12,343 nucleotides of DNA, from positions 1-12,343 of the forward strand of contig JAEOTE010000035.1 in NCBI GenBank assembly GCA_016839945.1, written 5' to 3'. Position numbers and translations under genes: made by a program. This document shows positions 1-10,606 of this stretch, piece after piece; position 1 is the first letter of the stretch, and the number at the start of each line of letters is the position of its first letter. This DNA is from Candidatus Heimdallarchaeota archaeon. Its GTDB lineage: Archaea; Asgardarchaeota; Heimdallarchaeia; Heimdallarchaeales; Heimdallarchaeaceae. A model generated the notes under the pieces. It was not told the DNA's origin. It ran no database searches and saw only the letters and a list, made by a program, of their open reading frames with translations.

Positions 1-1531
1 ATATTGTTGCAATGAAATGAGAGATTAGGGATTTGATTTCAGCTATAATATTATTTCTTCTATTGTAAACTCTCCGTAATTCTCCTAAAATTTTAGTAAA
101 CCGAATCGATTCATTTCTTCTAGATATGTTTTGTAAATTTCTATGAAGTTCAGATAATTTAATTTTAGTTAAATGATTGTATCTTCTTGTTAATTTAATG
201 ATTTCAGGAGGTAATGGTATATCTTCTGAGAAAGCAATCATATGTTCACCAATTCTATTTACATCTATCCCAATAGAATGGTTTTTACTCTGAATGGAAG
301 CATATTTTATCATCCATTCATTTATTTTATGTGTAATCATAAAAACATTAGAAGATCCTTCTAGAATAACTGTTACGATTATTTTATAACTTGGAGCTTT
401 TCCACTTTGTATTCGTAAAAGCTTTATTTTAGCACCTCTCTTAAGAAATAATCTTACTTTCTTAGAGAATTTGAGTGTTCCAACGATTTGAGAATGTCCT
501 TTCAATGTGAAAATTAAATCAAAATGTCCTTGCTTTTTAACAAGATCAGTCATTATTTTGGCGTTTCCTGGACGTATTACAACATATTCGTGTTTCATTA
601 AAAGTACTAATGGGAGTAATCCTTTTTTCTTGCTAATAAATGGGGAATTTATCAAACACTGAGAATAAATATTATTCAAAATTTTTAGTACAGTCTCTTC
701 AATAAATGGAGAGAGTGCGAATACAATTATTGTTCGCAGTGGAGATAGCAATTTCCATTTGCAATCCAACTCTTCTTCAATTGCTTTACTAAGAAATTTT
801 AACGCTTTCCAATGTGATATATGTTCAATGTTAAACCACTTATCAAGATAATTTGCAATTAAATTATAATTATCTTTTAGAAAGTTCAAAGCTTGAATGA
901 AATTTTTCTGATTTGTTGAAAGCACCTTATATTTTGATTTTATTTCCTTATTTTTCAAGATATAGCATTTCTGAATAGCGTTCTTGACTTCTTTCTTTAA
1001 TAGTTTTGGAAGCTTGGAGTTAAGTTTTAAATTCGAAGAGAAAAATTTATCTGATTGTCTCCTTGTTCTTGATACAAGATTGATAATGTAAAGGCGTTTG
1101 TAATTCATCTTTTTTCTTAGAATATATTCAAATCTAGGTGATCTACCAAATATTGACCATTCAATTGCTTCATCTTTGTGTTTAATGAGAGAAGAAATCA
1201 TAATTTTTGCATTCTTTTCTAATTCAACTGCGCTTTTTGCTGCAGCATGCAGTAGAAAATATGCACTCTGCGAAACATTAGGTCCTTTATTAGTGATTTT
1301 TCTCATTTCTGTATGTATGTATTTGCTAGAAAAATTAGGATAATTTCTAGCAAAATTCATTGCAGCATTTATAGCTTTTTTATCATAGATTAGATTTTCT
1401 TGTTGCAATTGTAATCCTTTAACTCGTTGGTTAGCTTCTCTTTCATATGCTCTTTTTTCTTTCAATGTTTTACCATTGAAACTAACACCCATTCTGTAAC
1501 TTCTGAGTATTGTTTGGGATTGTGTTGTCAT
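1..1531 (-). CDS. Large TnpB/Cas12-like RuvC-family RNA-guided endonuclease, 3'-truncated by the window edge (>510 aa)
   Basis: My manual translation from ATG 1531 (preceded by SD-like GTGAT; in-frame TGA at 1558-1556) stays open to base 2. It starts MTTQSQTILRSYRMGVSF, like the TnpB N-terminal strand. It then has a long basic helical region, the WED-like strands KIKLLRIQSGKAPSYKIIVTVILE, and a RuvC-I-like motif SIGIDVNRIGEHMIAFS (Asp423, codon 265-263). A basic bridge-helix-like segment follows (LRRVYNRRNNIIAEIKSLISHFIATI). RuvC-II/III and the Zn finger would lie outside the window. Confidence 0.78.
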   Translation of the reverse strand, partial: MTTQSQTILRSYRMGVSFNGKTLKEKRAYEREANQRVKGLQLQQENLIYDKKAINAAMNFARNYPNFSSKYIHTEMRKITNKGPNVSQSAYFLLHAAAKSAVELEKNAKIMISSLIKHKDEAIEWSIFGRSPRFEYILRKKMNYKRLYIINLVSRTRRQSDKFFSSNLKLNSKLPKLLKKEVKNAIQKCYILKNKEIKSKYKVLSTNQKNFIQALNFLKDNYNLIANYLDKWFNIEHISHWKALKFLSKAIEEELDCKWKLLSPLRTIIVFALSPFIEETVLKILNNIYSQCLINSPFISKKKGLLPLVLLMKHEYVVIRPGNAKIMTDLVKKQGHFDLIFTLKGHSQIVGTLKFSKKVRLFLKRGAKIKLLRIQSGKAPSYKIIVTVILEGSSNVFMITHKINEWMIKYASIQSKNHSIGIDVNRIGEHMIAFSEDIPLPPEIIKLTRRYNHLTKIKLSELHRNLQNISRRNESIRFTKILGELRRVYNRRNNIIAEIKSLISHFIATI

Positions 1532-1539
1532 ATGATCAC

Positions 1540-1566
1540 TATAATTCAGAGCACTTCAAAATTATA
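1540..1566 (-). promoter_or_regulatory. Kink-turn hairpin immediately 5' of the SD/start codon of the nuclease gene
   Basis: Minus strand reads UAUAAU-UUU-GA-AG-UGCU-CU-GA-AUUAUA: 6-bp canonical stem, 3-nt bulge ending in U, tandem G.A/A.G, then A-U and G-C pairs and a tetraloop. It is followed directly by GUGAUCAU-AUG. Confidence 0.6.
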
Positions 1567-1618
1567 ATACGAACTTTCATATTTAAACTGAAGAAATTTC
1601 AAAGAAACCATAGAATAA

Positions 1619-1702
1619 TGCGTGAATGTTCAGAGGTGCCGTTCTTCACATTGTCTTATAGTACAGACTCGAACGGTAAAACCTTCATCATTAATTCACG
1701 CA
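1619..1702 (-). ncRNA. Structured box C/D-like (double kink-turn) RNA element
   Basis: Perfect 9-bp terminal inverted repeat (1619-1627 with 1694-1702), exact box C AUGAUGA (1691-1685) and exact box D CUGA (1633-1630). C'-like GUGAAGA (1649-1643) and D'-like UCGA (1672-1669) are also present. Nested helices: AGGU/ACCU, CCGUUC/GAACGG, GUCU/AGAC. Confidence 0.65.
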
Positions 1703-1740
1703 AATAAGAATTAGTAAACCCCTAAATTAACATTCCTTTT

Positions 1741-1760
1741 GCGATAAGTTTAATTTATAT
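1741..1760 (+). promoter_or_regulatory. Putative archaeal BRE/TATA promoter for the 1779 gene (probably leaderless)
   Basis: gcgataag followed by tttaatttatat, about 20-30 nt upstream of ATG 1779; no SD visible. Confidence 0.35.
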
Positions 1761-1778: not shown

Positions 1779-3527
1779 ATGATAGAAAACATAACCCAAT
1801 TTTTAGACAAAAAATATGCAGCTACTTCAAAAACTCATCAGCTGTTAATGCTGTTTGAAAGATATAAAAACATGAATAAAGAGCTAGTAGAGGAATATCA
1901 AAAACAATACTCTAGGCCTACTAATCTTATTGTTTCAGCCTTATACACTGCAGATTATATTCTTACTTCCTCTGAAGTAAAGTTTGAGTTGGAAGATTCA
2001 GACAGGAGAAAAGAGATTATCGAATTTTGGTCAACATTAACTCTTCAAAATGATGAGATGTGGTATGAAATCACTAACTTAGTTGCTTTTGCATATGATT
2101 CTGCCTCCTTATTAAGAAAAAGATATTATCATCTTCTTGATAGAGGAGTGGCCAAACATATTGCAGCTTCATTAGTAGCCGATTATTATACAAGACATGT
2201 TTTGGAATTTATTTCCAGTAAAGGAGGTTTTATCCCACTATGGTGGGTAACCTATTTATTAGACACAGCACTTTGCCAGACTATTTTCTCCAAAACATTG
2301 CAGAAATGGAGTAATCGTCAAGATATCCTACTTTCAAGAGACCATGGAATTCTTGCAAATATCTTAGCAAGCCATTTTGTACCAGAAACTGAAGGTGAAC
2401 CTAATCCAGCAGTTCCTGTTCCTTACTTCAATGATTCATCAATTTTCTACTATATGATTTGGGGTGAAGAAGGAGCAAAAAAAGAAAGGTTTGATTCAAT
2501 TGTTTCTGGAATGAAAATTACTAATTTGAGCAAAGAGTTCAAAAGATGTGTCCCTCACATTGGTATAAAAGCTCCGCATATACTGAAATATCTTAGAAAC
2601 ACAGTAAGAATTTCTTCATCACCAACTCCTCTGAATTTCTTTGTTGTTCATGCTAAAACTGAAATTGGTGAAGGATGGATTGGTCTTGTTAGTCCTCTAG
2701 ATGATATTAATCTAAAAGAAATAGAAGCACTTTTACAAAAGAAATTATTAGATATGCAAAGTTTTGACAACTTCAGGAGTAATTTACCTATTATTGAAGT
2801 CTTGCAGAGAAAGAAGGAAGAACGAGAAAAAGTTGTTGAAAAAATTGAACGAGAAGAGAAAGGTTTCTTTGCAAAAATAACAAGTAAAATATCTTCATTA
2901 TTCAAGAAAAGCACAACAACTACTAAATCAGTAGCTATCGCAAAAATACAACCTATAGATACATGGTCAAAACTATTCCTTGATGAAATTCTAATGGCAA
3001 GTGTTTCGGGAGTTGACTTAGGGATAGAAACATATGATACTTACAGAGAAGATGACTTTGTGATTAGTGGTGTAATAGAATCCGAACAAAAAGAGATACA
3101 ACCCACTGTATTCTACTCTGAAAAAAGTATAGACTTTCCATCTGAATTTCTTGATCCAATTATATATTTCATAAACATTTCAAAAATATTCATATCAGCA
3201 AGTGCTAAGGGGGATATAATATCAATAATTCCGGAGGAAGCATTATACGAAGACAAAATTGATGCAAAAAGAACTCGTTTAGTTGAATTTGTTTTCGCAG
3301 AGAAATTGCTTGTAGGATTGCTTGCTGAGAAATATTCAACTGTTATGACAACTGGGGAACCTACATATCAAAGACGTTCAATCCTTAGAAAAGCAAATGA
3401 AATTCAGAAAGCTAGAAGGGTAAATAACATGATTGACGTTGGAAAGAGAACGATATCACGAGAAATAAACTGGGATACTGTTAATCAAAGTTATGAAGAA
3501 AAACCCTTGTTTTTCTTAAAGAAATAA
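1779..3527 (+). CDS. Hypothetical protein, 582 aa, with a central charged coiled-coil and an amphipathic helix
   Basis: Long ORF with host-like codon usage and no family motif that I recognise. RKKEEREKVVEKIEREEK is followed by GFFAKITSKISSLFKK. Confidence 0.85.
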   Translation: MIENITQFLDKKYAATSKTHQLLMLFERYKNMNKELVEEYQKQYSRPTNLIVSALYTADYILTSSEVKFELEDSDRRKEIIEFWSTLTLQNDEMWYEITNLVAFAYDSASLLRKRYYHLLDRGVAKHIAASLVADYYTRHVLEFISSKGGFIPLWWVTYLLDTALCQTIFSKTLQKWSNRQDILLSRDHGILANILASHFVPETEGEPNPAVPVPYFNDSSIFYYMIWGEEGAKKERFDSIVSGMKITNLSKEFKRCVPHIGIKAPHILKYLRNTVRISSSPTPLNFFVVHAKTEIGEGWIGLVSPLDDINLKEIEALLQKKLLDMQSFDNFRSNLPIIEVLQRKKEEREKVVEKIEREEKGFFAKITSKISSLFKKSTTTTKSVAIAKIQPIDTWSKLFLDEILMASVSGVDLGIETYDTYREDDFVISGVIESEQKEIQPTVFYSEKSIDFPSEFLDPIIYFINISKIFISASAKGDIISIIPEEALYEDKIDAKRTRLVEFVFAEKLLVGLLAEKYSTVMTTGEPTYQRRSILRKANEIQKARRVNNMIDVGKRTISREINWDTVNQSYEEKPLFFLKK

Positions 3528-8989: not shown

Positions 8990-10606
8990 ATGTATGGAAC
9001 ACCTGTTTATATTCTTAAGGAAGGAACAGAGAGAACTAGAGGAAAAGACGCTCAAAGAAATAATATCACAGCTGCAAGAGCTGTGTCTGAAGCTATAAGA
9101 TCAGCATTAGGACCTAAAGGCATGGACAAAATGCTAATAGATAACTTTGGCGACACTACAGTAACTAACGATGGTGCAACAATTTTAAAGGAAATTGAAG
9201 TAGGTCATCCAGCAGCAAAATTTGTTATTGATCTTGCTAAAACACAAGATCAGGAAACAGGAGATGGAACAACAAGTGTTGTTGTTATCGCTGGTGAATT
9301 ATTAAAACAAGCTGAAGAACTTCTTGATATGGATGTTCATCCAAGTCTGATTGTTGAAGGTTATAAACTTGCACGCTTTAAAGCCGAAGAAATTTTAGAA
9401 GAAATGGCAACAGAAGTACCGTTTGAAGATGAAAAAACAGTAAAATATGTGGCTCAAACTTCAATGTCTTCTAAAATTGTAAGTGGAGAAAAAGAGCCTC
9501 TTTCAGAAATTGTTGTCAAAGCAATAAAAGCTGTTGCTGAAGACAAGGATGGAGAAATGCATGTTGATATTGACAATATTCAAATACAAAAGAAGAAAGG
9601 TGGAAGCCTTGTTGATACAGAATTGATTGATGGAATAATATTGGATAAAGAAGTCGTTCATGCTGACATGCCGAAGAAAGTTGAAGATGCAAAAATTCTT
9701 CTTATTGATAAAGGTCTTGAATTAAGTAAAACTGAAATTGATGCTAAAATAAACATCACAAGTCCTGATCAGATTCAAGCGTTTTTAGATAACGAACATG
9801 AAATGTTAAAAGAAATGGCAGACAAGATTATTGAAGCTGGTGCTAATGTTGTTTTATGTCAAAAGGGAGTAGATGATATCGTACAGCACTATCTTGCAAA
9901 GAAGGGAATTGCTGCAGTTAGAAGAATAAAAAAGAGTGACATGGAAAAACTAGCCAAAGCTACAGGAGCTAAAATCACTACAAGTTTAGAAGAAATTGAC
10001 CAGTATCTTGGAAAAGCAAAAATTGTAGAAGAAAGAGCAATAGGTGACGATAATATGATATTTGTTACTGGTTGTATTAATCCAAAAGCTGTATCTATTC
10101 TAATTCGTGGTGGAACAGAAATGATTGTTAGCGAAGCTGATCGTGCTCTACATGATGCATTGTGTGTTGCACGACAAGTAGTTCATGACAAGAAAGTTGT
10201 TCCAGGTGGTGGAGCCCCTGAAATTCGCATAAGTCAAAAACTAAATGAATTTGCCATGGGTCATTCAAGCAAAGTTCAATTAGCTATTGAAAAATTTGCT
10301 AAAGCAATGGAAATTATCCCCAGAACATTAGCAGAAAATGCAGGGCTGGATCCAATTGACGTAATTTCAGAACTTCATGTGCAGCACTCTAAGAATGGTC
10401 ATGTATTTGGTGTTAATCCATTTGCAGCTAAAGTTGATGATATGGCAAAACTAAATGTGTGGGAACCAATATCTGTTAAGACACAAGCAGTAAATAGTGC
10501 TGCTGAAGCTGCAGAAATGATCCTAAGAATTGATGATGTTATCGCTGCAAAAGAATTATCTGGTGGTGGTCCTCCAGCACCAGGTGGTATGGACGAAGAT
10601 ATCTAA
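8990..10606 (+). CDS. ths: Thermosome (group II chaperonin) subunit
   Basis: [41 protein letters not shown] and ILRIDD motifs; Gly/Pro/Met acidic tail; SD gtgagg upstream. The alpha/beta paralog cannot be assigned by eye. Confidence 0.98.

Follow-up and report, generated by a model that had tools for sequence, protein, structure and literature searches.

A Heimdallarchaeota box C/D sRNA predicted to address both strands of SSU rRNA helix 18

The minus-strand element at positions 1620–1701 of the 12,343-nucleotide stretch of DNA analysed here (the window) is best read as an ordinary archaeal double-guide box C/D sRNA, in this case of Heimdallarchaeota, aimed at helix 18 of SSU rRNA, a reading to which we assign a probability of roughly 0.85 on the strength of sequence comparison. 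That the element is more than a chance arrangement follows from its conservation in 28 genomes together with compensatory changes in its terminal stem and hairpin. A first-pass annotation of this DNA had noticed the same parts, but had taken them for a rigid double-kinked scaffold instead of a methylation guide.

Results

Layout and folding of the sRNA

The box C/D motif order is present in the sequence, and the layout that had been described, stem–C–spacer–D′–hairpin–C′–spacer–D–stem, could be followed on the minus strand from 1701 to 1620 through these parts:

1620..1701, minus strand: the entire box C/D sRNA, about 82 nt between the outermost bases of the terminal stem, both included, identified by its sequence, a covariance-model match of 81.3 bits at 1617–1704 and homologues in 28 genomes
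1694..1701, minus strand: 5′ strand of the terminal stem, GCGUGAAU, partner of 1620–1627; 8 bp in the source genome
1685..1691, minus strand: box C, AUGAUGA, with UGAUG invariant across the genus; forms the terminal kink-turn with box D
1673..1684, minus strand: D′ guide, 12 nt, complementary to SSU rRNA helix 18 (E. coli 527–537), invariant in 28 genomes
1677, minus strand: the D′+5 nucleotide of the guide, five positions upstream when counted from D′ UCGA 1672–1669, partner of the predicted target U531 (E. coli)
1669..1672, minus strand: D′ box, UCGA here, with UNGA as the genus form, CUGA or AUGA as the sister-genus form and an invariant GA
1653..1668, minus strand: D′–C′ hairpin, GUCU / 8-nt loop / AGAC, the C-stem of the internal kink-turn; compensatory changes in three of four pairs
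1643..1651, minus strand: C′ box region, readable in two registers, AUGUGAA at 1651–1645 (family-aligned) or GUGAAGA at 1649–1643 (alternative)
1634..1644, minus strand: D spacer, 11 nt, core GGCACC, complementary by rRNA comparison to the 5′ strand of SSU helix 18 (E. coli 514–519) and also to the D′ guide
1630..1633, minus strand: box D, CUGA, invariant in the genus
1620..1627, minus strand: 3′ strand of the terminal stem, AUUCACGC, pairing with 1694–1701

AUGAUGA and CUGA thus stand close to the 5′ and 3′ ends, respectively, and are joined by the 8-bp stem, as looked for in a C/D sRNA. An internal D′ and an internal C′ box are also present, both degenerate (although D′ is CUGA in one sister genus) yet positionally conserved in the alignment, as UNGA and as AUGAAAA or AUGUGAA, respectively. 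The spacers measure 12 and 11 nt, close to the usual length of about 12 nt, and have the same lengths in relatives. All boxes are kept in the genus, the element being found in 28 genomes overall. The GUCU/AGAC hairpin between D′ and C′ was likewise confirmed at 1668–1653, where it covaries; its loop is shorter in the aligned relatives and longest in the source genome. The inner kink-turn had been called non-canonical for its longer bulge, which holds for the source genome but not for the family at large, as C′ in most aligned relatives is AUGAAAA after a 3-nt bulge and hence near canonical.

Across the 28 sequences, compensatory changes were seen at six of the eight pairs of the terminal stem, in which 99.5% of cells are paired. 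In the same set, both partners have changed in 11 pairs, and paired cells make up 93.5%, compared with 33–46% when the partners are slid. The element is richer in GC than its flanks, as had been remarked (0.40 versus 0.25–0.29). Its minus-strand MFE fold, which includes pairing between the two spacers, reaches −24 kcal/mol (z = −2.1; 8 of 200 shuffles equal or better). The plus strand gives a slightly more stable fold (−26.7 kcal/mol, z = −4.1); a function on that strand was rejected because the boxes, G-U pairs, promoter and rRNA complementarity are all features of the minus strand, the G-U pairs in the stems being valid there only.

Archaeal C/D sRNAs such as Methanocaldococcus jannaschii sR8 and the Pyrococcus sR families have spacers of about 12 nt, obey the N+5 rule and act with L7Ae, Nop5 and fibrillarin. 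The present sRNA shares with them the terminal C/D kink-turn, the internal C′/D′ motif and the spacer length, but differs in that D′ and C′ are degenerate and are joined by a small paired hairpin, making a true kink-turn, in place of a short K-loop. Sequences of this type are 70–82 nt long, versus about 55–60 nt for the other C/D candidates in the same genome, which are compact (53–55 nt from box C to box D), make 12-bp rRNA matches and have no inner hairpin; the hairpin is thus a mild peculiarity of this sRNA family. One pair of compact candidates lies at G000:C82 ~66003 (+) and G000:C32 ~15061 reverse-complement (script index, not contig coordinates), both with 12-bp rRNA matches: one matches LSU ~3064, with a further 9 bp at LSU ~3032, and looks like a double guide, while the other matches SSU ~988.

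The source genome encodes fibrillarin and Nop5 in adjacent genes on one contig, C85 (PF01269, 308.7 bits, and PF01798, 223.9 bits), as well as two L7Ae-family proteins (PF01248). An Rfam scan of the whole window with E up to 10 returned sub-threshold snoRNA-like matches only; at the locus itself the best was GlsR4 (21.5 bits for a threshold of 70, E = 1.7), and there was no match to SNORD65. Since no Rfam family reaches threshold and a double-guide design for helix 18 is already known, the sRNA represents a new family and not a new kind of RNA. A limited literature search found no paper on Asgard C/D sRNAs.

Distribution and genomic setting

The element is single-copy in the source MAG (3.0 Mb, 88% complete), and BLAST combined with covariance model R1 detected one copy per genome in 23 of the 24 species of the genus. 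Copies were also present in five of six genomes from four sister genera, or in six of six when a weak match of 29.1 bits is counted; the 28 genomes compared here are the 23 species of the genus and five genomes of these sister genera. The covariance model gave no match in any of 16 genomes from the order's three remaining families. When 185,579 species genomes were scanned for the two-guide signature, the covariance model confirmed Heimdallarchaeota-type genomes only, and the scan matches include MAGs named Candidatus Heimdallarchaeota, Ca. Heimdallarchaeum aukensis and Ca. H. endolithica among them. Bacterial matches and one Methanomicrobiaceae match, unconfirmed by the model, were discarded as chance. 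One MAG labelled Candidatus Thorarchaeota (L117, JBHLQZ010000010.1) carries an sRNA copy at 93.2 bits, equal to that of G003, a species of the source Heimdallarchaeota genus, and its Thorarchaeota label looks wrong.

In the source genome the element sits in a 247-bp gap between divergent ORFs, where two further features were marked:

1723..1730, minus strand: TATA-like box TTAATTTA, about 21–25 nt upstream of the first stem base; an A/T-rich box is kept at that distance in 23 of 23 genus loci
1737..1756, minus strand: conserved block AAATTAAAC + TTATCGCAAAA, almost unchanged across 23 loci; read on the plus strand, the block constitutes the TATA-like box of the divergent ORF 1779..3527 and a shared upstream motif

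Judged by the archaeal promoter consensus, the TATA-like box at 1723–1730 is likely the promoter of the sRNA, and T-rich tracts follow 3′ of the terminal stem in the genus loci. The divergent ORF (1779–3527, plus strand, 582 aa) is syntenic with the sRNA in 26 genomes from several genera; it matched no Pfam or NCBIfam family. Conservation, stem covariation, the TATA-like box, the T-rich tracts and the syntenic divergent ORF together fit an independently transcribed small RNA gene. In one species (G006), the AAATTAAAC + TTATCGCAAA block of the shared promoter region is duplicated.

Elsewhere the window codes for a thermosome subunit, an Arf-family GTPase, HisRS and TPR proteins; a tRNA scan of it returned none. 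Inside the thermosome ORF lies another C/D-like motif with a 7-bp terminal stem (window 10423–10513, plus strand) and a weak SNORD79 match (23.1 bits, E = 6.4), which is probably a chance occurrence.

The D′ guide and its predicted rRNA target

No rRNA genes were found in the source MAG assembly, and those of relatives were therefore used for the target search, namely six SSU and six LSU genes of the genus and five SSU genes of sister genera. All 11 SSU genes examined share one helix 18 sequence, and this helix is the best rRNA match of the D′ spacer, which forms 10 contiguous Watson–Crick pairs and a terminal G-U pair with its 3′ strand (CGGUAAAACC, E. coli 528–537) in each of them, with a duplex energy of −17.4 kcal/mol. 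Shuffled D′ guides reached 10 pairs in 16 of 1000 trials. The guide is invariant across the family, whereas the stems vary. The LSU rRNA genes of the genus (L031–L036) measure 3.38–4.4 kb versus 2.99 kb for the model, a range that implies large insertions or expansion segments differing between species.

The nucleotide at D′+5 falls inside the duplex and forms an A-U pair with the U of the 530-loop GGU; a run of at least about nine contiguous pairs with N+5 in a Watson–Crick pair is seen for the D′ guide only. We take this U to be E. coli U531, with numbering anchored on the 515F primer site. By primer-site numbering rather than alignment, yeast U578 presumably corresponds to the same U531, and the primer-site offset likewise places yeast Gm562 at what we take to be G515, on the opposite strand of helix 18. 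The positions of G530, A535 and G515 quoted in PMC4644070 agree with the 515F-anchored numbering, and in yeast 18S rRNA Um578 is a mapped site guided by snR77 and Gm562 is guided by snR40 (PMC5199042). Human U627/SNORD65 finds no mention in PMC5027482, and we claim no human equivalence.

The D spacer and the opposite strand of helix 18

The core of the D spacer, GGCACC, is complementary to GGUGCC at 514–519 over six Watson–Crick pairs (−12.9 kcal/mol), extended to seven in species with an A before box D. In the sister genera, the spacer reads CUGGCAC and makes seven Watson–Crick pairs to 515–521, which an additional G-U pair extends to 514–521 (−14.0 kcal/mol); the invariant part of the core, GGCAC, is complementary to 515–519. 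N+5 would fall on G517 in the genus and on C518 in the sister genera. At 6–8 bp the match lies below the guide criterion of at least 9 bp, and its length is not significant alone, as shuffled spacers equalled the run length in 23–66% of trials.

It is conceivable, if rather doubtful, that the D spacer is an orphan or has its target elsewhere (at another rRNA site, in a tRNA or in an mRNA) and that its match to helix 18 is coincidental. Many archaeal guides have no assigned target (PMC4644070), and Watson–Crick runs of equal or greater length do occur elsewhere in rRNA, with 7 bp at SSU ~1013, LSU ~42 and LSU ~2084 for the genus version and 8 bp at SSU ~387 for that of the sister genera. None of these sites is common to the two versions, however, helix 18 being the sole rRNA site matched by both. 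The helix-18 site is 8 nt away from that of the D′ guide, an arrangement typical of double guides (PMC4644070), and a search of the source's own genome for perfect targets of D-spacer 8–9-mers yielded only one to three other copies, apparently all in coding sequence. Taken together, the comparisons suggest that the D spacer is probably a second, weaker guide for G517/C518, or else an accessory or chaperone contact.

Among the sites inspected, an LSU site with an 8-bp match was rejected as a conserved target because the match extends into the first base of box D and does not recur in the sister genera. At G000:C145:19505–19530 (+), a UGAUGA motif immediately precedes a 9-mer exactly complementary to the D spacer of the sRNA.

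Pairing between the two spacers

The mutual complementarity of the spacers, which had been the ground for proposing a scaffold, is real and comprises eight pairs, GGU/ACC and CCGUU/AACGG. In the rRNA, 514–516 pairs with 535–537, and CC (518–519) faces GG (529–530). As the two rRNA strands of helix 18 are complementary to each other, the guide complements GGU/ACC and CC/GG must be so too, and five of the eight spacer–spacer pairs mirror helix 18's own complementarity in this way. The other three (G-C, U-A and U-A, next to the C′/D′ motif) are left unexplained by the mirror; the first nucleotide of D′ is a member of this group, and the three pairs may extend the non-canonical stem of the adjoining motif. 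The isolated spacer duplex amounts to −7.5 kcal/mol in the source genus compared with about −2 in the sister genera, where it is interrupted. We consider the duplex to be mainly a by-product of addressing both strands of helix 18, as the sequences suggest.

The spacers pair in the MFE fold, both are invariant in the genus, and the D spacer has no canonical rRNA match of at least 9 bp, all of which would suit a self-paired, rigid double-kink-turn scaffold that binds L7Ae-type proteins and guides no methylation. We nevertheless reject this reading, now very improbable, because the D′ spacer forms its rRNA duplex with D′+5 included. An rRNA match at the D+5 position was what the first-pass annotation itself had named as the mark of an ordinary sRNA, and the D′ spacer shows it along its full length (10–11 bp), in a universally conserved segment that is methylated in eukaryotes. 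The spacer lengths of 12 and 11 nt are moreover those that guiding requires, the intramolecular duplex is far weaker than that of guide and target (−7.5 versus −17.4 kcal/mol), its interruption in the sister genera leaves the isolated spacers with little pairing, and in two species one spacer–spacer pair is lost through a sequence change.

Relative to the four sister genera, the D spacer of the genus has lost one U and gained one C, which raises spacer pairing from about −2 to −7.5 kcal/mol and shortens the rRNA match from 7–8 to 6–7 bp. Because this change strengthens intramolecular pairing, we retain, as distinctly unlikely, a reading in which the D spacer of a genuine D′ guide RNA would have been remodelled under selection from a second guide into a pseudo-target: a helix-18 mimic masking the flanks of the D′ guide until RNP assembly, with the methylation-site nucleotide looped out, in a self-masking RNA that would need RNP-driven unfolding. 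Partial covariation of the nucleotide just 5′ of box D with position 7 of box C (A-U 12, U-A 5, U-G 1, unpaired 9) and a single compensatory change at the inner spacer helix, in one sister genus, are consistent with such a history. The same sequence change, however, merely shifts D+5 from C518 to G517 and leaves the energy of the D-spacer rRNA duplex nearly as it was, and the alignment, being fitted to the covariance model, leans towards the model structure. Within the genus the spacer helices show zero variation, so that covariation neither supports nor refutes spacer pairing there. The by-product reading is the one we prefer.

TnpB-like genes beside the sRNA

Downstream of the sRNA and on the same strand lies a TnpB-like ORF (window 2–1531, minus strand), within which the source contig ends; the sRNA is 88 nt upstream of it. 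A full-length homologue with TnpB hallmarks (653 aa, 39% identity) also lies 3′ of the sRNA in the relative G014; it has a Cas12f1-like TNB domain (PF07282) and a match to the NCBIfam guided_TnpB model that falls short of the cut-off. That the sRNA belongs to this gene as a leader, guide or regulatory RNA is nonetheless hardly credible. A TnpB-like gene is found at the sRNA in only 2 of 28 genomes, the divergent ORF on the other side being kept in 26, and the G014 copy is a 2055-bp insert splitting the sRNA gene, from which we conclude that the sRNA is independent of the nuclease. Furthermore, homology of the source genome to its nearest relatives ends 8 nt after the sRNA, and the TnpB-like gene has a TATA-like box of its own. 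The leaders of the two TnpB-like genes (window 1529–1600, minus strand, and L080:549–627) have a TATA-like box in common, and immediately ahead of the start codon both carry a similar motif, CUGA...UAUAGU...AUG.

The insert in G014 (L080:553–2607) is flanked by diverged 53-nt copies of the sRNA 3′ half (L080 500–552 and 2608–2660), with the break point at the border of the D′ guide and the D′ box. G013 lacks the insert and has a chimeric sRNA 3′ half, which looks like the outcome of recombination between two 3′-half copies with loss of the insert. The sRNA gene thus seems, from these sequences, to be a site used by TnpB-like elements, and the invariant D′ guide may, as a distinctly unlikely reading, be the landing site of elements that bring a replacement sRNA 3′ half with them.

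Discussion

In the mechanism that we propose, the sRNA would be transcribed from the minus strand as a stand-alone, promoter-driven gene and would assemble with L7Ae, Nop5 and fibrillarin, the spacer duplex of the naked RNA having to open at this step. The D′ guide would then base-pair with the 3′ strand of helix 18, in the 530 loop of the decoding centre, and direct 2′-O-methylation of the U531 equivalent, while the D spacer would contact the 5′ strand (514–519 here, 515–521 in the sister genera).

Such a design has precedents. Helix 18 is a predicted methylation hotspot (PMC4644070, PMC7994747), and Dennis et al. 2015 reported four crenarchaeal sRNAs with a D′ guide at A535 and a D guide at G515 of helix 18, stressing strong selection for the coupled helix-18 interaction (PMC4644070). 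Like Sulfolobus acidocaldarius sR115, Pyrobaculum calidifontis sR28, Thermoproteus tenax sR114 and Ignicoccus hospitalis sR21, compared here by published design, the present sRNA directs D′ to the 3′ strand and D to the 5′ strand; it differs from them in its lineage (Asgard/Heimdallarchaeota), in its shorter D match and in its predicted sites, U531 and G517 (C518 in sister genera) in place of A535 and G515. Its D′ guide addresses a U of the 530 loop as yeast snR77 does (U578 being presumably U531 by primer-site numbering), and its D spacer faces the opposite helix strand, which in yeast is methylated at the snR40 site Gm562, presumably G515. Unlike in yeast, where two separate snoRNAs serve helix 18, a single sRNA would do so here, and the likeness is one of target site, not of demonstrated descent.

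The biology is otherwise as expected for an sRNA of this kind. Addressing both strands of one helix accounts for self-complementary guides in simple structural terms, a helpful point where automated scans flag such RNAs as odd. The sRNA gene of the relative, split and rebuilt, is a small but concrete example of a conserved guide-RNA gene that serves a mobile element as its site. The sRNA itself adds a well-supported C/D family, outside Rfam, to Heimdallarchaeota, a lineage close to eukaryotes, and extends the double guide on both strands of helix 18 beyond Crenarchaeota. For the ribosome of these archaea, it predicts a 2′-O-methyl group at U531 of the decoding centre, a site that is modified in eukaryotes via snR77.
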